Source: Octopus sinensis (lineage: Eukaryota). Taken from it: a stretch of DNA of 64,000 nucleotides. The notes beneath the pieces were generated by a model. That model made no database searches and was not told where the DNA came from. It saw only the letters and a list, made by a program, of their open reading frames with translations. Position 1 is the first letter of the stretch. Each line of letters starts with the position of its first letter. The position numbers were made by a program, and so were the translations under genes. The DNA lies in assembly GCF_006345805.1 (NCBI RefSeq), contig NC_043003.1:100998001-101062000 (forward strand), in the 5' to 3' direction. This document shows, in pieces, positions 24,169 to 63,427 of this stretch.

Positions 24169-24244
<76 letters not shown>

Positions 24245-24249
24245 ATGAT

Positions 24250-24798
24250 AATCTCAGAGCGAGTTATAAACAGTAGCGATAACACATCGTGTTGCATATT
24301 TGCCATTTGAATATGGCTAACCCATAAGGGTGGATGCTACTGTAGTTTGTACCCCCAGGAAGATATCTCCACCAGCTGGCTATAGCTATAGCCAGCTGGT
24401 GGAGATATCTTCCTGGGGCTACAAACTACAGTAGCATCCACCCTTATGGGTTAGCCATATTCAAATGGCAAATATGCAACACAATGTGTTATCGCTACTG
24501 TTTATAACTCGCTCTGAGATTTATCATTGTTTGATTTCACTTTTTCAATATCAGTGTCAAATTGACACTGGAAAAAGTATATGTATTTGTGAAGGGATCT
24601 GACTTCTCATCGACAACCATGATTGTCACATACTGTGTATCATGTGTTGAAGACGGGGAGGATGACTCCCCTTCACAAATACTGAGAGGACACAGATAGT
24701 GTGTCTATAGCCAGCTGGTGGAGATATCTTCCTGAGGCTACAAACTACAGTAGCATCCACCCTTATGGGTTAGCCATATTCAAATGGCAAATATGCAA

Positions 24799-24801
<3 letters not shown>
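24250..24801 (+). repeat. 319-bp tandem repeat (about 1.3 units) preceded by an inverted copy forming a ~270-bp palindrome
   Basis: 24391 and 24710 are in register. Palindrome centre at about 24385/24386. Flanked by (TA)n on both sides. Confidence 0.88.
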
Positions 24802-24840
<39 letters not shown>

Positions 24841-28052: not shown

Positions 28053-28657
28053 AATTAACACTTGTACATCTTTGTTACTTATTTATATTCTGTTCACCTA
28101 ACTTGGAATTTGCACTTCAGAAATACTATAGAAAATAACTTTATAAAAATACATGTCTGAATTACCAAGAGCGGATGTCTTTACTTAGCTGAGTTGCGTT
28201 GTCTACACACACAACAGGAATATTGGGTACAAATACCCCTACACGGAGTCTTAATATTCAATGTTCAAATAATAATGTTGGGGCATGCAGGTTATACTGA
28301 ACTAGCAAGGTGTCTCAATTTAAGTACTTAATTCAACTGAATCTTAATTATATTTTATATATATATATTTATATATATATATATGCATGTGTCTATTTCT
28401 CACAACCAGTGGGGGGGTGTTTACCTCCCGTAACTTATTGATCAACAAAAGAGACTGATATAATAAATACTGGGCTTCAAAAAATGACTCCTAGGATCGG
28501 TTTGTTCAACTGAAGTCCTTCAAGGTGGTGCCCCAGCATGACTGCAGTTAAATGACTGAAACATGTAAAAGAAAAAAAGAGAAAGGATATATATATATTT
28601 GAAATTAGTGATGTAGTCTCTTTCATTATCCGTAAGTGAGTTGTAGACCACCACATC

Positions 28658-30394
28658 ATGAAAAAGATCAACAACCTGATCTCGACACACTACAACTCAC
28701 TTACGGATAATGAAAGAGACTACATCACCAATTTCCAACCAAAACCCAGCAACTTCTACGGCTTACCAAAAATACACAAATCAAAAGATATTCAACAGGC
28801 AGTAAAAGAACAAGAAAGTGAGTACATAAAATTACTACATCCAAAAGACCTAAAACTTAGACCTATTATAGCTGGTCCAGCATGCCCTACCCACCGTCTA
28901 AGCAATTTTATTGACATTGTTTTGAAACCACTATGTACTTACATACCCAGTTTCATCAGGGATGACATCGACTTCCTGTCCCATCTTCCCAAAACAACAG
29001 AAACAAATTCAGTTTTACTAAGTTTTGATGTGGTAAGCCTCTACACCAATATTCCACACGATTTAGGAATAAAGGCGATTAAATACTGGTTAGAAAAACA
29101 TAGAGAAGTGATTCCCAGCAGATTCACAGTGCCATTTATATTAGACACAGTCAAACTTATTCTAGAAAACAACACATTCTTCTTCAATGGAAAGAATTAC
29201 ATCCAAATTAGAGGCACGGCGATGGAAACGAGGTTTGCTCCCATTTATGCCAACTCTGTAATGGGATACTTAGAACAACAACTCTACCAAGAGGTGGAGG
29301 TAAACTATGGCACTGGATTTAGAAAGTATATTGAAAAGACATGGAAGAGATACCTAGACGACTGCTTCATAATCTGGACAGAATCTCTAAATACTCTGGA
29401 AGAGTTCAATATCCTCCTGAACAACCTACACCCATCTCTCCAATTTACAAAGGAGATGAGTAGTACCAAATTACCATTCCTAAATATAATGGTAATTAAA
29501 AAAGACACCACCATCACCACAGATATATACTATAAACACACAGACGCACATCAATACCTAAATTTTAAGTCGTGCCATCCACCACATACAAAACGTAACA
29601 TCCCATACTGCCTAGCCAGAAGAATTTGTACCATTGTAGAAGATGCAAATATCAGGAACAAACGCCTAACAGAACTAAGAGAACTTTTGCTCAAACAAAA
29701 ATACCCATCTCTACTTATAGAAAATGGCATACAGCAGGCTATAAAAATACCCATACAACTTAGGACAACCCAAGGAAGAGGAAAACAAGAACAAGTCATA
29801 CCATTCATAGTGACACACAACCCATGTCACCAGAATATCTTCAACATTGCCAAAGCAAACCTACCAATCATTGCCCAAAGTAATGAATTAAAAGACATAA
29901 TCACAGATCGAGCTATGGTGCTTAGTAAAAGACAGCCTAAAAACTTGAAAAAATTACTAACAAAGGCAAAATTTGACCTTAGCAACAAAGACCAAACATT
30001 CACTGTATCTAAATGCAATGATAGCCGATGTGGCACATGCCAATTCATACATACCGGCCAATATATAAACACAAAAACCGGGAAAATATTCACAAACGCG
30101 AATATGAACTGCAAAAGCAGAAATTTAATTTACTGCATCAAATGCCCAAATTGTGAAGAAATATATGTAGGTCAGACGGGAAACGCACTATCAGAACGCT
30201 CACATGTACACCGGCAACAGATTAGAGACCCAGAGGTCCGTCAGATACCTTTGAGTAACCACCTGGCAACATGTGGCCGGAAAATGTATATAATATTTCC
30301 ATTCTACAAATTACACAGCCCAAGTGAAATCGAGAGGAAAATCAGAGAAAAGAATTTTATTGATAAATTCGAACCCAAGCTAAATAAGCAATAA
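28658..30394 (+). CDS. Penelope RT + GIY-YIG endonuclease (578 aa, N-truncated)
   Basis: Motifs FYGLPKIHK, LRPII, SFDVVSLYTNIP, RYLDD, SCHP and NLIYCIKC...YVGQT. Confidence 0.92.
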   Translation: MKKINNLISTHYNSLTDNERDYITNFQPKPSNFYGLPKIHKSKDIQQAVKEQESEYIKLLHPKDLKLRPIIAGPACPTHRLSNFIDIVLKPLCTYIPSFIRDDIDFLSHLPKTTETNSVLLSFDVVSLYTNIPHDLGIKAIKYWLEKHREVIPSRFTVPFILDTVKLILENNTFFFNGKNYIQIRGTAMETRFAPIYANSVMGYLEQQLYQEVEVNYGTGFRKYIEKTWKRYLDDCFIIWTESLNTLEEFNILLNNLHPSLQFTKEMSSTKLPFLNIMVIKKDTTITTDIYYKHTDAHQYLNFKSCHPPHTKRNIPYCLARRICTIVEDANIRNKRLTELRELLLKQKYPSLLIENGIQQAIKIPIQLRTTQGRGKQEQVIPFIVTHNPCHQNIFNIAKANLPIIAQSNELKDIITDRAMVLSKRQPKNLKKLLTKAKFDLSNKDQTFTVSKCNDSRCGTCQFIHTGQYINTKTGKIFTNANMNCKSRNLIYCIKCPNCEEIYVGQTGNALSERSHVHRQQIRDPEVRQIPLSNHLATCGRKMYIIFPFYKLHSPSEIERKIREKNFIDKFEPKLNKQ

Positions 30395-30890
30395 TAATAA
30401 TACTTAGAGGTACTACTTCTACTGCTAGGACCATGACCACTAACAACAACAACAATACTAAAGGTGATCAAGATGAAGATAGCAGGAAAATTATCTTATT
30501 TAGGGTTAAAAGTTCTATTGCCACCACCATCACCACTAGCAACAATAATTAAGGTGCTGACAATGATGATGATGACAATTGAAATATAAAAATATAAAAA
30601 TCTCTGACAAAGGCTATTTACAACATTTCTAAAAATAACCCAACAATTGCTGCTTTGGCCAGGGTCAAGATACAGGACTCTTGACATGTCCAACAAAGCG
30701 TGACGCCTAAACCAATCAGCTCAACCAACCAATCAGCTTAAGTAATTGAGTGATACTACACACTGATTGGTCAGAATACAGTTTGCAAAACCTAGCACTC
30801 TGGAGCCTACCCAGCTGTATTTATAGCACAGAATCAATCATCTTGCTACAGTCAAAAATTGTGAAGCATGACTGTCACCACTACTACATA

Positions 30891-30931
30891 AACCCGAAGA
30901 TTGCAGAATTTAATGCATGAAAGTACTAGTT
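30891..30931 (+). ncRNA. Variant or decayed hammerhead in a Penelope 3' pLTR
   Basis: AAC-CCGAAGA-tTGCA gaatttaa TGCAt-GAAA-GTAC-TA-GTT. U4C change and weak stem I. Confidence 0.55.
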
Positions 30932-31057
30932 CAATCAGAATGAACATTTAACATTCTACTATTTTATTTTATTCTATTATAATATATTATCTTATAATAT
31001 ATCATTATAAGATTGTAAATAAAACGTGAAAATCAGACAAGGTTGGAATTCCTTTTA

Positions 31058-31101
<44 letters not shown>

Positions 31102-32335: not shown

Positions 32336-35300
32336 TACATGTAAGTTCTCTAGACATCCTAGTGTTTGAGGCTATACTCATGAAGTAATGTAGATAATTA
32401 AACAGATTCTAAAGTTCATTAAAGTTCTTTAAAGATGATGTACAGTCTTATCACAGAATTTTAAAAAAGTTTTGATAGCATCACAGAGAAGGTGACCTAA
32501 TCCATATGAATTTCCATAGATATGATGAGGGATTATATACTCACAGAAGACAAATTTATCCATTGTTACTACAACGAGGTGGGTCTCAATTCCTGCTTAT
32601 TAGCATTACAGAGAGGGTGAATTAATCCTTTGTATATATGCACAGATTCCAATGGTGTAGATGTAAATTTCCAGAGAAATGGAGATGAATTTCATATTCA
32701 CAGGCGATAAATTTTACAATGGTTGAACACAATGAGGTAGGTATCAATCCTTGTTATATGATTAGGTGTTTGCCATATTAATCACATTACTGCTATTCAC
32801 AAGAGGCTGTAGCTATTTAACTCTTAAAGGCTGAAGGGCTTACTAGATCGGCCAAGAATAGAGAAGGGATAGAAGAAAAGAGAGAAAATAATGGAGGAGG
32901 GAGCAAAAAGGGGGGGGAAAGGGGGAACTAAAAGAGAAGAGAAAAGGAAACAGAGAATAAGAAGAAGAAAAAAAGAAAGAGAAAGAGAAGAAATAGGGAA
33001 AGAAGGGAAAAAAGAAAAAGAAAAAAGAAAAAGAAAAAAAGAGGGTTCTAGTTATACAGAAGAGCTAGTAGACTGTAAGTCTGGTTTAATCAACAGGCAT
33101 CTAGGAACTAGAGGGGAATATATTCTTTGACCAGTAAACCGTTAATTTATTGCTGTTGAAATCAGCTATGAGTTTAAAGAGAATCTAAAGAGATAACACA
33201 GTCAGGGGGTTAAGGGGTCAGATGCTAAAATCACCAGAAAATACATTAGGAAAATCTAAGTATAATCTTATCAAAAAGTCATTAAAATTTACTTATTTAA
33301 TTTATTCATTTTATTGTCTTAAGGAGTTGTCGTTATTATTCATACATTGACTGACTACAGGTCAAATCTTATAAGATCATTTACAAGGTGTTAGGGGATT
33401 GTCTATCATAATGAAGATAATCATATATTCACCGAGGGAATAGCCTTATTTATTTAATTATGAAATAGAATTATGGGGCTACAGTAACTAATTATAATTT
33501 ATTAGAGTTATGCTATTTAAATTAGATTAAGTTAGGAATTAAAATTAAATATTACAATTAAGATTTAAAATTAAGAATTTAAAAATTGTGAGTTTGAAAT
33601 TAAATAAAGCCTCAATTAAGTAGCGAATAAGTACTATTCATTTCCCTGTTCTCAAAAAACTGATGCAGATATAAGGAAAAATATAAGATAACTGTAATGT
33701 GAGAACTCTTAGTTATCTACTTAAAGCAGTGCTATACTAGTAGAAATCAAGTTATATCTATCTATCTAGTTATGAATATTCCAATCATTTAAAATATTTT
33801 AAAGTCTTCAATTTAGCGTGGACACAAAACTTGACCTAGTTCGATATGGTTATTCAATAAGTTTCTATGTTTACTATGCTTTAGAATTTCGTACGTCTCC
33901 ATGGAGCATAGTTGACAACCAACCCTACTATTTTTATACGGAATTGCTCTCCTAACTATTTCCCAATTAAGGGTATAATTTTTGTTATTTTTTGAGTTCC
34001 CAGATTTTGTTTGAAAGTGTGGTGGTACCAGCTTTATGACGTAATTTAAAAGTCGAGATGTGATTTCTAACTCTGGCTAAAAAATTAATTGTACAGCCAA
34101 TGTAAAAATATTTGTTATTCTCCGTGGATATGGTACATTTATAGATTACATTATTTTCCCTACATAGACCAGGTGCCGGGCATTTTGATTTTATTCTACA
34201 CTTACACACAGGAGGAACAACTTCAGGCCTTGGATTATTCCTGGGTAGATGTTTAAGGTTCCTATTATTTTGATTATCATTTCTATAGTTGGTGCTGATA
34301 TCTAAAGTATTGTTATTATTTATTGATCCTTCCGTTTCATCATTTAGGTGTAAAGTCCTACCAAGATTTCTTATATTATTCGTAATGTTATTATTATTGT
34401 TAGTCTTTTATCCAACTGTATATTATTGTTATAGATATCACTGATATTTTCATTCTCCTTATTTTCTCCATTAGCCTTATTTCTATTATTCTATTATTAA
34501 CAATATTACTTCTATTAATATCGGCATTGTTATTATTACTATTAATGTTAATGTTATTAGTCATTCTGTGGTTACTAATTTCACCTATGTTTTGATAGTT
34601 CCTATTGCTGTTTTTATTGTTGGTAGTATTATTGTTATTGCTATTGGTATTCATTCTGATATTATTATTTTTATTTCTATCTTTCCTGGCTAGTTTAATG
34701 TTGTTATTATTAATTTTAGCTATTAAAGTGGACATATTTGGGAGGGTTGAATAAGAAATCCTAACTGTTTTCCTAGAAATAATTCTATGATATCTATGAG
34801 AGATAGGGAAATTTTTTCCAGAATCACTTTGAATTTGTTCTGTATATCCGATTGTATCGCACAGTTGAAAGGAATATTCAGCCAAATATATCTTTTTTAT
34901 AAAATTTAGGGTTCGTAGAATTACTACTATTCATCTCACCGGAGTTATTGTATTTATTACCATTATTTTTATTTTTATTTGTGTGCATCTTAGGTTTATC
35001 TACTTCAATCTTATCCGAGTTACCTATGTTCTGGTCAATGCTTCTATTTGAATTGTGGGCCTGTACTCTAGATTAGCGTTTACCGTTAATTAATTCTACT
35101 TTTATTTCGGGTTTGGTCTTTTTGCTGCTTACGTGATTACTGATAACTTCATTATTAGGAATACGTGAGTTCTCCCTATCAACGAATGTAATCTTTTGGT
35201 TGTATCCAGCCTTAGTTAACGCCGCATTATAATGCTCAGAATGGGATTTAAATATATCCTTATTGGATGATAATTTTGAAATTCTTAATGAAATATTTCT

Positions 35301-36419: not shown

Positions 36420-39400
36420 ATATAAATAAGACTAGCAATAATAGCAACATTCTGAGGAGTATAGATAGTACAAATTTATCCCACCCTTACTTAAATAAGA
36501 AATTCAAAAGTAAAAATATTATATGGTTCAATGTCCCTTTCAACTAATATATATAGTAAATTTATGTCCATATTAGAAACAAACTTCCCGCATAAAACAG
36601 TCAGAATATTCTCCCCATTCTCCCCAATATAAGTACCATCATAGCTAGATTAAATAGAAAGAATATTGGACCAGGCAGAAATGTTAAAAGTAACAATAAT
36701 AATAATAATAATAATAATATAAACAATAATTATAATAATATCAATAATAACATTAGTAATAAAAATGGTACTCACAATAATAATAACAATGAAAATGACA
36801 ATAATAAAAATAATAATTATATGAATAAAAATAATAATAACATTCCTACTAACCAAGACTTAAACACCTCTAATGAAAATAATATTGAAAATGATATGGT
36901 GTATGATATAAATGACATTAGGTCCACTAATAGTAGTGTTATGGAATATAGTTCCAGTACATATGTGTACATGGAAACTATGTGTATACCTGATGGAGAT
37001 GAGACAAATTTATATGATAAGATGGTTGAGGAAGAATTAGAAACTAATAGTCAAAACCATAACTTACCTGATAATGTAATTATAGATAACGATGATACTA
37101 TTAATGTCAATAATAGTTTAAATAACAATAATAACAATAACTTGTTTCTAAATAATACTAATATCAATAATTATTCTCCTAGTTGTAATTGTAGAATCAA
37201 GTCCCACTATCCGGTATCTGGTCGGTGTCTAGCCCAAAACGTAGTATACAAATGTACAGTAATGACTTCAACTAATAAGTTTATTTATTTTGGTTGTACT
37301 GTAAATCTGAAGAAATGTATATATAATCACAGATCATTGCACAACATTATCCAATAAAATTTGGGAGCTAAAAGAAAATAGAATTAGATTTAGCCTTAAA
37401 TGGGACATAGTAAGGAAAGCGCAACCTTATAAAAATAGTAGATATGGGTGTGAACTCTGCTCCATGGAAATATATGAAATTTTTAAACATAAGGATAATG
37501 TAAACCTGTTAAATAACCATTTAGAACTAGGAGTATCGTGTATACATTGTACTACCCATACCTTTAAATATTTTAGAAAATAGCATTCTGTTATTCCTGA
37601 ATTTTTAAATCTTAATTTTTACCTATTAACTTTTATAAATCAATGAAGAAATAGCATACCCTACAATATTAATTGTTTAATCAGCACTAGGTATTAAGAA
37701 ATTTAATAACATAGACAAATTGAATAAAATTGAATAAAATAATTTTTAAATTTCTAAAATTATTACATAAATTCTATATTTCTAATGAAGTTAATAGGTT
37801 GTATATTTACACTACAATAATTTTAAGGATTTAGTAATTTTCACATCTATTTCTATGATGATTCTACTCTACCTAATCTTTTTCGATATTCTAATAATAC
37901 CTTTATATAAGCCTAAATTATTATACCCCATATAGCCATACTTTACTCTTAATATACATTATAAGATTTCCCATAAAATAATTCTATATCTCTATATTTT
38001 CATTTTCTATTTGCCTTTTTGTTTACCTTCCTTCCATTGTAGTTAAATAAATTTGATATGCATGTCAATTAGTACCCTGTTTACTGGAAATCTCATTCTA
38101 AAATCTTCTAAATTACCCTAATTAATATTTTATAACCTTATACAAATAGATAATATTGTTTAAAAGGGGTTTTTTTTTTTAAATTACTTGATTTCTCTTT
38201 CTCTCAAATAGCTCTACCCCGGTGATCTTAGTATGTATAAAGAAGTTTTATAAAAATAACATTTTATAAATATCAGTTATAAATTATAAATTATCATGTA
38301 AGGATTAATAATATCATAAATCTATAATAAAACACATAATTTTATATAAAGTTTTGTTAATATAATTTTTGTCCAACAACTTAATTATTTCCTTATAGAA
38401 ACTTAATTATAACTTAATTATTTCTTTATAGGTATTCTCATGACAAGTAAATGTAATTTTTAGTCTAAAAATTATAAGATTATAACATTTCTTCTAACAA
38501 ATTACCTTACCTATAAATATAAGTAAGCTAAGTATAACTTATAATAAGGTTTTGGAACACAAATCCTTTTACTCCTTGTCTATAACAATTCTACAAAGAT
38601 TTATATTTTTTTAGTATATTCATTTTTATTTCTTTATTTTACTTTCAAACCAATTTCTTATCTATTTATTCACTATATCATTTTATTTAAAATATACCTC
38701 TATAAATTTCATACTCAACTTATATAAAACTATACTAATATATTCACTATTTATTTTATAATATAAGAAATATGCTCAAACTAAAATTGTTAATATATTA
38801 TATAAGTTTTTTAACACATTCCTTTAACTTAACTTTCCTTTATACCAATAATTACCAGTTAATAATTAACTATAAATATATGTAAGTTGGTATAGAAATA
38901 TAAAATATGGAATTATTTCTATATTCTCTGTCCCTCTATAGTGTAAAATCTTTTGATAATACTGAAAGTAATCAGAAATATTCTTCTTATTGCCTTTTGA
39001 AACAACTCTAAAATATATCTGTGTATATTTGGTAAATAGTTAATGCTATATGTTTTACTCTCCCTAACCCACTAGCATTAGCCTGCTAACTTAGCTGAAG
39101 TATATTCTTACTGAACCAAATGGTTTTTACTTCAAAGAGATCTTGATTTATGACTCTGCCACTTAAACGGTCTTTTTTTACCCTATCCATAAAGGATAGA
39201 TTCTAGTTTCTATTAGACTTGATAAACTAGTCTATAAATTAAAACTACCACCACCACTAGTAAATCTGATTAAGAAATATAATCAATAATAAGCAATGTC
39301 TTCTTTTGAAAAATCTCAGTTACAACTGTGATGTTGTTGATAAAACATGTTCTTTGTCTATCTACTTATCCTCTTTGTGGTTTTGGATAAAAAGAAAACT

Positions 39401-45412: not shown

Positions 45413-46642
45413 CATAAATTTACTTGGAAATGGATGCATGGCATTCAGTCATATAATAATATTAGCTTAAGGTGACCCACTCTACGCGCGGGTAAGAGTG
45501 TGGTTGTTATTTTCTGTTGCATCCTTTTGGCATGTAAAAAGCACCATCCGAACGTGGCCGATGGCAGCGCCACCTTGACTGGCTTCTGTGCTGGTGGCAC
45601 GTAAAAAGCACCAACCGATCGTGGCTGCTGCCAGTGCCCCTCCCCCCCGTGGCACGTAAAAAGCACCAACTACAATCACGGAGTGGTTGGCGTTAGGAAG
45701 GGCATCCAGCTGTAGAAACACTGCCAGAACAGACTGGAGCCTGGTGCAGCCTCCTGGCTTCCCAGACCCCGGTCAAACCGTCCAACCCGTGCTAACATGG
45801 AAAACGGACGTTAAACGATGATGATGATGATTCTCCCTCTTTGTTTCTCTCTCCTTTCTCTCTCCCTTTCCCACTCTCTTACTCTTCCTTTCTCTCGGAC
45901 TCTCCCTCGCTTTCTCTTACTCTCTATCTTTCGCTATCTATCTCTCTCCCATTTATAAACAACAAAAGATCTTGAGTAAGTTGAGAAAGAAAGTAGTTTG
46001 AAAGATCAATCATAAATATCAGGCAGTGACAACAGAATGGTCTGCTTCAAGGCAGAAAGCAAAGCACTAACATTTAAAAGGGACAGGCGAACTTGCAAGC
46101 TGAATAAAAATAAAAAAATATTGGAAACCAAAGTTTGAAAGGATAGAATCTGAGGATAGTAGAGTCACCATGGCTGGCATTTCTTAACGACGGACAGTAA
46201 CATAGTGACAGTTTAACGGCTGGCATAAAATTTTGAACTTGATGTAAAAGAAAATTCCTAAACACCAAGCTTTGAAGTGATTCTTTCTCACGACAGTAGA
46301 CTCACCATGGCAAGCATTCAAAACTTCTTCATCATGGACGGCAACACATTGACGATTTAAAGGCTGGCGCAAATTTTTTAGCTTCATGTATCAGAGAATT
46401 CCTAAACACCCGCTCCTGTAAATTTTAATTCCCTTCAAGCCCCATTTAGACCTCTTTTCACATTTTGGTTAATATAACCCGATTTCATTCGGGTCTACTC
46501 GGGTCACATTTTATAAGATGAGGAATTTTGTCCTAGAGGTCACGCCTTTCATTTGAGGAAAAAAATAGTTGTCATGCAAACTCGCCAGCACTTTTAACAT
46601 AGGTGTGCATATTTTCAGCACAACCGACCACATAATGCACAC

Positions 46643-46675
<33 letters not shown>

Positions 46676-46679
46676 GCGT

Positions 46680-46712
<33 letters not shown>

Positions 46713-46772
46713 ACGCATTATACATACAAATGTATACAAATTATAAATATATATATTTATATATTTATAAAA

Positions 46773-48970
46773 GACTTGAGGTATTTCGTATAGTAAGACA
46801 GTGTGTGAGAGAGAATCGTGACGTGGTAGGAGAAAAATGTGTTCGCATGGATGACGGCTCACTTGCGCTAAATGAGGATGCAAAGAGAGAGGTTTGGAGA
46901 CGCCACTATGAAAGGTTGCTGAATGAGGAAAATGAATGGGATAAAGCGAGCCTGCCGAATGTTGACCCAACAGAGGGACCAGCAATCCGAGTTGACAGTT
47001 CCTTAGTAGTTAAGGCAATTACAAGCATGAAAACAGGCAAAGCCCCAGGCCCATCAGGAATTACTGCAGAGATGCTCAAAATATCTGGTAGTGTCGGCTA
47101 TAGCCTAGTCACCCGTATAGTTAACCAGGTGATACACGAAGGAGTCATACCCAATGACTGGTGTAGCAGCATAATAGTCAACTGCTACAAAGGTAAAGGT
47201 GACGCCCTAGATACAAATAACTACAGGGGTATCAAGCTGCAGGATCAGGTAATGAAGGTTACGGAGAGGGTTATAGCCCAACTAATTAGAGAGAGAGTTA
47301 GCTTAAATGAGATGCAGTTTGGGTTCGTGCCAGGGAAAAGTACTACTGATGCTATCTTCCTGGTAAGACAGCTGCAGGAGAAATACCTAGCCAAAGACAA
47401 GCCCCTATACCTGGCTTTTGTTGATATGAAGAAAGCCTTCGACAGGGTCCTCCGATCCCTTATCTGGTGGTCAATGAGGAAACTAGGGATAGATGAATGG
47501 TTAGTGAGAGCTGTACAAGCCATGTACAGAGACGCTGCTAGTAAGGTGAGGGTTGGCATCGAGTACAGTGAAGAATTCAGGGTAGAGGTTGGGGTCCACC
47601 AAGGTTCGGTCCTCAGTCCCCTCCTATTTATCATAGTCCTCCAGGCAATAACGGAGGAATTCAAGACAGGATGCCCCTGGGAGCTCCTCTATGCTGATGA
47701 CCTTGCTCTAATTGCTGAGTCTCTATCAGAACTGGAGGAGAAGTTTCAGGTGTGGGAGCAAGGTTTAGAATCGAAGGGCCTTAGAATCAACCTAGCCAAA
47801 ACCAAAGTCCTAATAAGTAGGAAGGTAGACCAATCACAAATGCGTTCAGGTAGATGGCCCTGCTCGATCTGTAGAAAAGGCGTAGGTAGAAACTCTATAA
47901 GATGCACCAAATGTAAGCTATGGACACATAAGAGATGTAGTAATGTCAAAGGAAGACTAACTAGGAAAATAGTTTTTATCTGTGGCAGATGCTCAGGAGC
48001 AATAAACTCTGAAAATATGCAGAGACCAACTTCTACCACATTCCAGGGAGAAAAACTAGAAGTAGTTGATAACTTCCGCTACCTAGGTGACCAAGTCAGT
48101 AGCGGGGGCGGGTGTGCTGAAAGTGTAACTGCTAGAGTAAGAATAGCCTGGGCAAAGTTTAGAGAGCTCTTACTCCTGCTGGTGACAAAAGGCCTCTCAC
48201 TCAAAGTAAAAGGCAGGCTGTATGATGCATGTGTACGTACAGCCATGCTACATGGTAGTGAAACATGGGCTGTGACTGCTGAGGATTTGCGTAAGCTCAC
48301 AAGAAATGAAGCTAGTATGCTCTGATGGATGTGTAATGTCAGTGTTCATAATCGACAGAGTGTAAGTACCTTGAGAGAAAAGTTGGACCTAAGAAGCATC
48401 AGTTGTTGTGTGCAAGAGAGACGATTGCGCTGGTATGGTCATGTGGCGAGAATGGATGAAGATAGGTGTGTGAAAAAGTGCCACACCCTGGCAGTTGAGG
48501 GGACCTGTGGAAGAGGTAGACCCAGAAAAACCTGGGACGAGGTGGCGAAGCACGACCTTCGAACTTTAGGTCTCACCAAGGAAATGACTAGAGACTGAGA
48601 CCTATGGAAGTATGCTGTGCGTGAGAAGACCCGGCAAGACCAGTGAGGACAGTCAGAATCAAAATCAAAATCAAACCAAATCAAATCAGATATCAGAAAG
48701 CAGAACCAAAATTACGTGCTGGTGGCATGTAAAAGCACCATCCGTTCATGGCCGTTTGCCAGCTCCGTCTGGCACCTGTGCGGGTGGCACGTAAAAAGCA
48801 CCCACTACACTCACGGAGTGGTTGGCATTAGGAAGGGCATCCAGCCGTATAAACACTGCCAGATCTGACTGGGCCTGATGCAGCCTTCCGGCTTCACAGA
48901 CCCCAGTTGAACCGTCCAACCCATGCTAGCATGGAAAACAGACGCTGAATGATGATGATAATGATGATGA
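46773..48970 (+). mobile_element. RTE-clade LINE, 5'-truncated
   Basis: RT motifs KAPGPSGI, NYRGIKL, QFGF, GVHQGSVLSP, YADD. Two in-frame TGA stops (48323, 48596). 3' UTR ends in (GAT)n. Confidence 0.95.
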
Positions 48971-55810: not shown

Positions 55811-55944
55811 AAATTAATACTTGAACAGGGTGCTGCTGCATAATGCCAAAGACTTTGACTTTGCCATCAAGATACAGGACAAGATATTGCAACAGCCTGG
55901 GCTTTAAAGGCCCACAGCTCTTCAATATATGTATATATTAGAGA

Positions 55945-56345
55945 GATGTACTTGCATAGCAAGTGACCTGATCTGAGATCGTGTGTTGAAACAAAAACAA
56001 TTGTAGTATGGTAGGTGTTTAAAAGCCATTTAAAAACACACAAAAACTGTTAGATTCACTTCAACATTTAAATTTAATTTGCCAAAATATTATTGTCGCT
56101 TTGAGACCATGACCTGTTCACTGACAAAATTCCATGCTGCACACACACACACGCACACGAGCGCATAAATATATTGCACAAAATTTTGTCAGTGACAAAA
56201 AAATTTGATACAAATTAAATTTAAATGTCGAAGTGAATCTAACGGTTATTGTGTTTTTTTAAATGGCTTATAAACACCTTCCACACCGCAATTGTTTTTG
56301 TTTCAGCACACGATCTCAGATCAGGTCAGTTGCTATGCAAATATA
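55945..56345. mobile_element. MITE or foldback with ~170-bp inverted arms
   Basis: TTGCATAGCAAGTGACCTGATCTGAGATCGTG / CACGATCTCAGATCAGGTCAGTTGCTATGCAA. Confidence 0.75.
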
Positions 56346-56420
56346 TCACTGTAATATATATTGGGTTGTATGTATATATATATATATGTGTGTGTATGTG
56401 TGTGTGTGTGAAAATATATA

Positions 56421-56475
<55 letters not shown>

Positions 56476-56478
<3 letters not shown>

Positions 56479-56612
56479 ACATAAGGGGGATCAGCCATCT
56501 GAATGTGGCTAGGGACAGGGCGGGGTGGTGGGGGTGTTACTGATGCATTTAGCCCCAGGCGATCATCGACGTCACCAGAAGGGCCGACACGGATACTACA
56601 TACGGACCGGTT
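56476..56612 (-). repeat. Inverted partial copy of the 360-bp unit
   Basis: Reverse complement of the unit 3' part (about 56859-56973), joined to the reverse complement of about 56783-56806. Confidence 0.9.
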
Positions 56613-56754
56613 TAGAGCAGTTACTGTTTATATCTCGCTCAGAGATTTATTATTGTTTTCGAACGGATTTTCTACGCCAGTGACTGTGGTTACTGTGAAA
56701 ATCCCTATATATCCAGCCTGTAGAGGAAGTCCCTCAACGAAGAACGGTGCTTAC

Positions 56755-56797
56755 CATGCGTTGACAAGAGGCAATATCCTCGAAACCGGTCCGTATG
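56755..56797 (+). ncRNA. Minimal type I hammerhead ribozyme, U3-A8 core (unit 1)
   Basis: Stem I CATGCG/CGTATG, core TTGACAA, stem II GAGG-caatat-CCTC, GAAA, palindromic stem III ACCGGT, and a GUC cleavage triplet ending at 56791. Confidence 0.85.
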
Positions 56798-57114
56798 TAG
56801 TATCCGTATCTTCGGGGAGGCTGATCTCCCTTTGCAGGTTGGCAAGGACACCGAGATGGTGTCGGCCCTTCTGGTGACGTCGATGATCGCCTGGGGCTAA
56901 ATGCATCAGTAACACCCCCACCACCCCGCCCTGTCCCTAGCCACATTCAGATGGCTGATCCTCCTTATGTTATAGAGCAGTTACTGTTTATATCTTGCTC
57001 AGAGATTTATTATTGTTTTCGAACGGATTTTCTACGCCAGTGACTGTGGTTACTGTGAAAATCCCTATATATCCAGCCTGTAGAGGAAGTCCCTCAACGA
57101 AGAACGGTGCTTAC

Positions 57115-57157
57115 CATGTGTTGACAAGAGGCAATAACCTCGAAACCGGTCCGTATG
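57115..57157 (+). ncRNA. Minimal type I hammerhead ribozyme, U3-A8 core (unit 2)
   Basis: CATGTG-TTGACAA-GAGG caataa CCTC-GAAA-CCGGTC-CGTATG. Predicted cleavage after 57151. Confidence 0.83.
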
Positions 57158-57375
57158 TAGTATCCGTATCTTCGGGGAGGCTGATCTCCCTTTGCAGGCT
57201 GGCAAGGACACCGAGATGGTGTCGGCCCTTCTGGTGACGTCGATGATCGCCTGGGGCTAAATGCATCAGTAACACCCCCACCACCCCGCCCTGTCCCTAG
57301 CCACATTCAGATGGCTGATCCCCCTTATGTTATAGAGCAGTTACTGTTTATATCTCGCTCAGAGATTTATTATTG

Positions 57376-57414
<39 letters not shown>

Positions 57415-57416
<2 letters not shown>

Positions 57417-58290
57417 GCCAGGTTGCATCCTGTCACCAGCAGCCTTCAACATGTACGCTGAAAAGGTCATGAGGAATGCAGGCCTGGAGGATAGCAGCAT
57501 TGGAGTGAGGATTGGAGGAAGGAATATTAATAACCGTCGCTATGCAGATAATACAACCCTGCTGGCGGAGAGTGGTAAGGATCTGGCGGATCTTGTCCTG
57601 CTGGTCAAGAAAGAGAGTGAGAAATTTGGGCTGTACCTCAATGTTAAGAAAACGAAGATCATATCAACAGCAGCCACAACAAACATCAGCATCAAGATCG
57701 ATAATGAAGAGATCGAAGTGGTTGATGATTTCATCTTCCTTGGCTCCAAAATAAATCGAGATGGTGACTGCACTTCAGAAATAAGACGGCAGATAGTACT
57801 AGGCAGAGAGGCAATGCTCAGCATGAGCAGGGTCTGGAAGAGTAGAGACATCAGACTCACTACCAAATGCAGATTGGTGAATGCAATTGTCTTCCCAATA
57901 GCAACATATGGATGTGAGACCTGGACACTAAAGAAAGCTGACCAGAAGAGAATTAATGCATTCGAGCTTTGGTGTTGGAGAAGACTTTTACGGATTCCAT
58001 GGACAGCGAGGCTCACCAATGGAGAAGTTCTTAAGCAGATCAGGCCGAAAATGTCGCTAGAAGCTAGGATCACCAAGCATAGATTGGCATATTTCGGTGA
58101 AATATGTATGCTGAAAATCCCTGGAGAAGGGCATCATGCTCGGAATGGTCGGTGGCAAGAGAGGAAGAGGCCAACCAAGAACCCACTGGCTTGACACCAT
58201 CAAGAGTGATCCCGGAATGAAGCGGCCCAGGATATAACTGACTGGAGGACACTGATCCAACAAGCAACCGAGAGTCGACTTTGACTGAGC
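57415..58290 (+). mobile_element. RTE/BovB-like LINE 3' fragment
   Basis: GCILSP, RYADN, YGCETWT, FELWCWRRLLRIPW. Confidence 0.88.
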
Positions 58291-62515: not shown

Positions 62516-62734
62516 TTATCTGCTAGTATTTTATTAAGTTATTTATTCAAAACAGTAATGTGTGATTTGAATGCATTTTAATTACTTTTACTACCATGTT
62601 GTGCAGTTGTGTAGAGCTGCATGCTTTTGTTTGATTCATTTTGGCATTAAAGAATTGTGCATGTAACCAATGAATTATTCATTCAAGCAATAGATCCATC
62701 AATCAAATTTTATCTAATTATTTATTATACTTAC

Positions 62735-62927
62735 ACCTGTTGACATACATTTTCTCTTTTCTATTCATTTTGTGGCAGGTATTTTTTGTCTTTTGTTGAT
62801 ACCATTCCTCTATTCGTTGTATGTTTACTTTGGAGTATACGTATGAATCAAGGAATTCAGGGTTCTCATTCAGAAATTTTATCATATTTTCTTTTTTCCA
62901 TTCTGTTGACAAAGAAAAATCAACCAT
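62735..62927 (-). CDS. PDE10A: PDE10A-like phosphodiesterase, first recognisable coding exon (MVDFSL...YVNR)
   Basis: KFLNENPEFLDSYVYSKVNIQRIEEW resembles the N-terminal YLSLHPQVLDEFV..VSAETVEKW helix of PDE10A. GTAAGT donor at 62734-62729, phase 1. An upstream TTTTCAG acceptor at 62961 leaves 11 more open codons, so the exon may start at 62960. Confidence 0.8.
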
Positions 62928-63427
62928 ATTGGTAAGCCAATAATTGTGAATTTTTTTCTTCTGAAAATCAGAATAAGTAGAATGTGAAAATTCATTTTCA
63001 TATACTGGAATAATAATGATGGTGGTTGTGTTCTAACATAAGCACAAAGCCTCAAATCAATCAAATTCTAAGACATTAAAACACAGTCAAATACACAACC
63101 TTTCCAAATCAAAATAATGCATTTCCAACAAAATAAGGCATTTCACATCCAACATATTCTACAAAAGACATGAAACATTAAATAACACCGGTACTAATAA
63201 TCCAAATCTAAAAACAATGCAATTCTGTATAACAGAATTTTACATTCCACCTCACCCCTACACAAAAATTATGTGCATACCTCTGGAACATGGAAGTAGA
63301 CTTGGTGGTGCTATAGATACTTGCATAAAACATATTTCTCTTTGATTTAAACACAAGGACAGAAATTTTGAGGAGAGAGGATTAGGTGACACCATTAACC
63401 TCAGTACATAGCTGGTACTTTATTTTA

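Follow-up and report, generated by a model that had tools for sequence, protein, structure and literature searches.

The 64,000-nucleotide stretch of Octopus sinensis DNA analysed here (NC_043003.1, positions 100,998,001 to 101,062,000; hereafter the window) contains one copy of a dispersed, non-coding family of 360-bp units, each with a hammerhead motif. The family probably represents a non-LTR retrozyme that depends for its mobility, in trans, on a Penelope-like element (PLE) encoding an endonuclease. Insertions of this family carry the footprint of such elements: two fixed 3' ends, a tail at one end and an AT-rich target. These ends, called here site B (unit 353–3) and site A (unit 36–51), lie about 43 nt apart, and "tail" is used as defined in PMC8557442 and PMC11167929. 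The features of the insertion, together with a related one elsewhere in the window, are as follows.

56414–56478, no strand: left (TA)n target tract
56475–57377, no strand: whole insertion, an inverted and a direct arm placed head to head between (TA)n tracts
56475–56617, minus strand: inverted, 5'-truncated arm, unit 167–195 joined to unit 247–360/2; outer end at site B, no tail
56613–56972, plus strand: unit 1, 360 bp (TRF)
56746–56804, plus strand: hammerhead 1, type I, with a U3-A8 core and a 2-bp palindromic helix III; predicted cut at 56791/56792
56792–57151, plus strand: 360-nt monomer whose release is predicted (fold prediction)
56973–57332, plus strand: unit 2, 360 bp, ending at site B
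57106–57164, plus strand: hammerhead 2; predicted cut at 57151/57152
57333–57377, plus strand: tail, consisting of nucleotides 1–45 of a third unit and terminating at site A, about 43 nt past site B
57377–57408, no strand: right (TA)n target tract
24239–24802, no strand: two-arm insertion of a sister family (353-bp unit) with the same tail and the hammerhead core deleted

The tandem at 56613–57377 has a period of 360 in 2.1 copies with 98% matches (TRF), and its two full units differ at five positions. The C17 residues of the GUC sites lie at 56791 and 57151, exactly one unit apart, and the longest Met-initiated frame among the six reading frames is 70 aa, indicating that the tandem is non-coding. 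A previous sequence-only reading of this stretch had described about 2.1 near-identical, non-coding 360-bp units with GUC sites one unit apart, all of which holds; its extent of 56613–57377 is correct for the tandem itself but overlooked the inverted arm at 56475–56617 that directly adjoins it, so that the insertion is larger (56475–57377), with (TA)n on both sides. The inverted arm comprises unit 247–360 and unit 167–195, lacks unit 196–246 and contains just the 3' half of the hammerhead. The locus has one site A and one site B end and was classed among five complex loci.

A type I hammerhead motif is present in both window units. In hammerhead 1, a distal stem of 6 bp (56746–56751 with 56799–56804) is followed by an internal loop of 3 nt and 1 nt, stem I of 6 bp (56755–56760 with 56792–56797), the core UUGACAA (56761–56767), stem II of 4 bp (56768–56771 with 56778–56781) and GAAA at 56782–56785, while helix III consists of two pairs closing a 2-nt loop within a palindrome. 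The core carries U3 and A8 in place of the canonical C3 and G8. The earlier description of a complete type I hammerhead in each unit is thus supported for the topology but not for the core, which is non-canonical. An Infernal search with Rfam hammerhead models, which that reading had proposed as a check, covered the window and the fetched loci and gave no match in the window at the gathering score or at E ≤ 10; this blank is uninformative, since six sister-family loci, some with canonical cores, were also unmatched.

Predicted folds suggest how such a motif might act. The 63-nt motif alone is no more stable than its shuffles (z −0.40 and +0.64), and a 96-nt region that includes the distal stem is considerably more so (z −3.78). 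For a circle of the entire 360-nt unit, which has a GC content of 49%, the predicted fold reaches −111.1 kcal/mol (z −2.6, with 0 of 40 shuffles as low) and contains stems I and II but lacks helix III. Because helix III does not form in this predicted circle, the monomer is unlikely to cleave itself efficiently. Two copies of the helix III palindrome form a 6-bp dimer pairing in silico (−9.7 kcal/mol), and by analogy with axolotl motifs (PMC7229834) cleavage would require a dimer.

The repeat is not a chance occurrence, since an exact search with a 31-nt core returned 108 matches in the 2.72-Gb genome and none for the reversed control. These copies form a dispersed family present on most large contigs, and a relaxed core pattern raised the count to 119. 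The tail motif also matched the second element in the window (24239–24802), through which sister families were identified, with units of 353, 361, 348 and 354 bp; there are at least five such diverged families, all of them tandems of 348–361 bp. Across this superfamily, a generic hammerhead pattern found 3101 matches versus 18 in the control. When 13 hammerhead variants were aligned, 95.5% of cells were paired (25–53% in slid controls) and 9 of 19 pairs had changed on both sides, though these figures should be taken as support rather than as a probability, the variants being related, hand-picked to span the families and the source of the structure itself.

The core pair 3-8 varies among families. 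It was CG in nine and UA in four of the 13 variants; among 93 motifs in 80 loci it was U-G in 46, C-G in 32, U-A in 14 and C-A in one, and a hand tally of the 100 listed among the 3101 generic matches gave C-G 53, U-G 24, U-A 21 and C-A 2. The C3-A8 mismatch is therefore avoided and the U3-G8 wobble is common. Because U3-G8 is the commonest class in one of these samples (46/93), the pair may be under relaxed constraint, and the C3-G8, U3-G8 and U3-A8 cores of the sister subfamilies provide a natural series on core tolerance. In some sister subfamilies, position 4 is C or the basal pair of stem II is mismatched. A TATA-like stretch at unit 93–102 (window ~56706–56714), about 50 nt before the core, occurs in all five aligned families and is a possible promoter.

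The anatomy of the insertions was examined in 86 distinct places (100 fetched loci minus 14 duplicates, each with 1.5 kb of flank on either side), which had been selected for carrying a full unit or core. They comprise 40 single-arm, 41 simple inverted two-arm and five complex loci, and 130 of 138 arms terminate at site A or site B. Simple two-arm loci almost invariably combine the two sites: 37 of the 41 were A+B, one was BB, none was AA and three were of other types, so that A+B accounts for 37 of the 38 loci classifiable in these terms (p = 2.8e-10 against 0.5). The same pairing was found in sister families (36/40 and 36/45 multi-arm loci, with no AA or BB), in 7 of 8 loci of the coding family PLE-A with ends on both strands, the eighth having inner repeats only, and in coding PLE-B, where 12 of 13 inverted pairs had one end of each kind (hand tally).

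The target sites tell a similar story. A (TA)3 motif lies within 12 nt of 86 of the 130 ends, compared with a background of 7% (954 of 13682 12-mers), and the flanks are 93% A+T versus 64%. Target duplications of 9–14 bp, mostly 12–13, flank 19 of the 86 loci versus 0 of 600 mismatched flank pairs; none was found at 62 of the 86 in a search that left out (TA)-like duplications. The arms of two-arm loci overlap by 0–4 nt at their junction in 28 of 41 cases. With two fixed 3' ends, (TA)n targets and 9–14-bp duplications, the Penelope-type mobilisation put forward from the sequence alone gains considerable weight, and the insertion ends offer direct genomic support for PLE mobilisation of animal retrozymes, together with a quantitative rule of one site A and one site B end per inversion that applies to retrozymes and coding PLEs alike. 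A fold-back model, in which the second arm is copied from the first cDNA, was rejected as a general route: the tailed arm was longer in 15 and shorter in 22 loci (n = 37), and some short tailed arms include sequence that the opposite arm lacks.

A mechanism consistent with these patterns would begin with read-through or internal transcription that yields a multimeric RNA, which paired hammerheads, likely acting as dimers, would cut into 360-nt monomers to be closed by a host ligase. The RT-endonuclease of a PLE, probably as a dimer, would then nick both strands of an AT-rich target about 12–13 bp apart, and synthesis from the two nicks would start at different points of one RNA species, site A for one nick and site B for the other. 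The cDNAs would be extended upstream past the junction to varying lengths and finally joined at an overlap of 0–4 nt, giving a head-to-head structure like that in the window.

Which RNA served as template can be narrowed down from the arms. A cut linear monomer would limit arms to about 183 nt (from site B) or about 226 nt (from site A), with 5' ends that coincide with the cut. Yet 108 of 130 arms read past one or more cleavage sites (90 past one, 17 past two and one past three), a count inflated by the selection of loci with a full unit or core; the shorter arm does so in 27 of 41 two-arm loci. No pile-up of 5' ends was detected at the cut, unit 176–186 holding four ends versus 4.0 expected. 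Because the arms read through the cleavage site and their 5' ends do not accumulate there, a cut linear monomer can be rejected as the template in favour of a circle or an uncut multimer. Divergence within a locus is 1.5% between arms and 1.7% within tandems, compared with 4.1% between loci, and at 34 polymorphic sites that mark subfamily alleles the arms were discordant in 28 of 1143 comparisons versus 28.8% between loci. Since the arms share subfamily alleles, one sequence thus templated both, though gene conversion, or the activity of one source at any given time, would have the same result.

A circle would explain both the shared alleles and the regeneration of length, and an uncut multimer or template jumps could also do so. 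The latter form the core of an alternative that we consider unlikely, in which the family is the same non-autonomous PLE passenger but is copied from uncut linear multimers or through RT template jumps, the hammerhead being weak or vestigial in this subfamily and the circle unnecessary. The lack of a 5'-end pile-up at the cleavage site, the helix III missing from the predicted fold and the many U3-G8 cores are all compatible with it, as are the insensitivity of PLE insertion in vitro to ribozyme mutants (PMC11167929) and the behaviour of PLE-A, which forms 4.3-kb tandems although a motif scan of five of its loci found no hammerhead, so that tandems as such need no circle. A vestigial hammerhead, however, fits poorly with stems that covary across families and with the near absence of C3-A8, and because arms reach 3.3 units (the longest being 1186 nt) while most loci hold fewer than two, length must be regenerated somehow. 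Recurrent unit-to-unit differences of the kind that would mark a linear multimer source were not clear among the 25 most frequent discordant sites, which is a weak test.

The retrozyme reading also implies independence from any coding element in cis. An alternative account, that the units are 5'-truncated pLTRs of an unsampled coding PLE, is very unlikely, even though the insertions are built like PLE ends (PMC8557442) and the family was sampled at just 86 places with 1.5-kb flanks. Every arm longer than one unit continues into the previous unit and never into an ORF; none of the 40 single-arm loci shares its 5' flank at the junction (1.5-kb flanks); PLE protein matches occur in 5 of the 86 places, none as an ORF running into the 5' end of a unit; and the at least five diverged sister families are likewise all tandems of 348–361 bp. 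No ORF with RT and GIY-YIG domains was found in the unit or joined upstream of it across the 86 places and their 1.5-kb flanks. A unit always occurring as the pLTR of a coding Penelope element, the pattern that the sequence-only reading had held to be incompatible with a retrozyme, was thus not seen at these places. One contig that extended past the tail turned out to continue into single-copy flank. A local tandem duplication, or a satellite, whose hammerhead-like motif arose by chance would suit the 63-nt motif, no more stable alone than its shuffles, and the lack of an Rfam match, but this reading is refuted by the fixed ends of a dispersed family, whose copies lie on most large contigs, and by target duplications and covariation.

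If the element is a retrozyme moved in trans, its partner could be sought among the PLEs of the genome, three families of which were compared with the unit. The window holds the following PLE sequences.

28640–31097: 5'-truncated copy of PLE-A
33985–34930: fragment of PLE-C, with Asn-rich inserts
36596–37357: fragment of another PLE family, with Asn-rich inserts

The RT + GIY-YIG ORF at 28640–30394 belongs to PLE-A, a young family that inserts into (TA)n, carries a tail of about 33 nt and has intact frames of 775 aa at other loci; PLE-C is represented elsewhere by frames as long as 947 aa and by numerous identical copies of the endonuclease. The abundance of Penelope RTs nearby, to which the sequence-only reading had pointed, is no evidence for a retrozyme, since neither of the two window families compared has any sequence in common with the unit. 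Homology to the units was absent from the ends of PLE-A (30 + 27 loci, partly overlapping), PLE-B (30 loci, BLAST) and PLE-C (30 loci), so none of the three PLE families compared provided an autonomous element with homologous ends.

PLE-B appears to be of Neptune type, judging from its CxxxxCxxC linker, and has frames up to 923 aa. A minimal hammerhead-like motif of the U3-A8 kind recurs in its 3' region (L270–L298), with 29 matches spread over 28 of 30 loci. This motif has the helix III palindrome of the retrozyme, a stem II of 2–3 bp and an additional U ahead of the core. At one locus (L069:1321-2128; G000:C7:115528320-115529127), (TA)n is followed by 285 nt of the 360-bp family without its own 3' end, then by a 5'-truncated PLE-B end with tail and again by (TA)n; the junction is direct, with a short duplicated insert there, and this chimera was the single one among 40 candidates scored. 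Another composite (L363:62-1669 and L419; G000:C1:76384500-76389400) consists of an inverted PLE-B-like 3' end, an internal piece of the PLE-B ORF and a sister retrozyme whose end is at site B, the three adjoining one another without intervening host DNA. Direct PLE-B/retrozyme junctions were thus found in 2 of 251 places. At five further places PLE-B-like DNA is nearby but not joined; PLE-A DNA occurs close to none of these places, although one PLE-A copy is separated from a neighbouring sister element by a simple-repeat tract.

These two junctions are a weak lead to a candidate partner. Template switching fits them, and so does loss of the DNA separating two adjacent insertions within one (TA)n tract. 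A rather unlikely elaboration would have a dimer of the Neptune-type PLE-B load on one circular retrozyme RNA without shared terminal sequence and prime the two target nicks at the two fixed sites, one each, while rolling round the circle, the PLE-B junctions being template switches. If true, it would name the partner of the retrozyme and establish a strict two-site, two-strand rule of PLE integration unseen in vitro.

In four sequencing runs presumed to be RNA, contigs span most of the unit, but the neighbouring 3 kb of other repeats has equal or greater coverage, which speaks neither for nor against expression. Run X1 yielded a 359-nt contig that amounts to one unit of the 361-bp sister family, at a depth of 154, above that of the 360-bp family pieces, though contigs cannot show circles or levels. 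Elsewhere in the window, LINE-type RT fragments (Pfam RVT_1), which may be RTE-like, lie at 57419–58194, beginning just past the right (TA)n tract, and at 46598–48325. A MITE-like inverted repeat of 150 nt (90% complementary, 129-nt spacer) occupies 55932–56360. A short frame at 62718–63032 on the minus strand had no significant Pfam or PDB match and may resemble a phosphodiesterase N-terminal exon.

Among the papers listed in searches on octopus or cephalopod retrozymes and hammerheads, no title or abstract dealt with the 360-bp family, which may be catalogued in Repbase or Dfam, and among those listed for retrozymes with inverted arms, tails or target duplications none gave such a footprint. 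The retrozyme class, its link to PLEs, the tail and the U3-A8 core are each already published, and our findings are for that reason moderately surprising. PLE mobilisation of retrozymes was no more than a proposal in 2020 (PMC7229834) and in a review (PMC7761336), according to which the repeats lack any motif that would indicate a partner. If the circles are real, these animals would contain thousands of genome-encoded ribozyme circles.

Metazoan non-LTR retrozymes, as presented in the consulted sections of Cervera and de la Pena (2020; PMC7229834), are non-coding tandem units of 150–450 bp (350–390 bp in mussels) that form circles. The octopus element resembles them in unit size, a type I hammerhead in every unit, a 6-bp helix I, a 4-bp helix II, a weak palindromic helix III, a GC content below 50%, a self-paired predicted circle and the presence of PLEs in the same genome. 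It consists of a head-to-tail, non-coding unit within that size range and without LTRs (360 bp, 70-aa longest frame), is dispersed in many copies with target duplications (108 core matches; 19/86 vs 0/600) and is independent of a coding element in cis within the 86 places and their 1.5-kb flanks; an RT + GIY-YIG ORF between pLTRs, as in an autonomous PLE, was not present. It differs from the retrozymes of that account in its U3-A8 core and in occurring as short dispersed insertions with a longest arm of 3.3 units rather than in arrays up to 62-mers. Inverted arms, fixed ends and a tail are present here and are not described for retrozymes in the consulted sections of that paper. Circles were demonstrated there, whereas that of the octopus element is a prediction.

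A survey of 35 genomes, in whose consulted portion no mollusc class is named, concluded from co-occurrence and from pLTR homology in Xenopus that animal retrozymes are non-autonomous PLE derivatives (Li, Clavereau and Pollet 2026, 10.64898/2026.07.22.740005); of nine Xenopus dimers tested there, eight did not cleave and one did. Our data agree that animal retrozymes use PLE machinery, but here the support comes from insertion anatomy, with no homologous pLTR among the three PLE families compared.

Insertions of endonuclease-bearing PLEs are described as a pLTR, an inverted 5'-truncated copy and a tail of 30–40 bp, and non-autonomous Chlamys elements (MRC1) with PLE-type ends are described in the same papers (PMC8557442, PMC3846280, PMC11167929). 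The octopus insertions share with them a partial tandem plus inverted copy, a one-ended tail, AT-rich or (TA)n targets, target duplication and an internal RT start downstream of the hammerhead, but differ in having no ORF, a 43-nt tail and a fuller, retrozyme-type hammerhead rather than a minimal one. The PLE tail is accounted for by a pair of RT start sites inside the RNA (PMC11167929). In that in vitro system uncut RNA was the main substrate and, because both strands used both start sites alike, a strict A+B rule is not predicted. U3-A8 hammerheads occur in the Cercyon PLEs of Schistosoma (PMC4209133), where U3-A8 replaces C3-G8 as it does in the window; in contrast to those minimal motifs, the octopus hammerhead keeps a distal stem and an internal loop, and its sister families carry C-G, U-G and U-A pairs.
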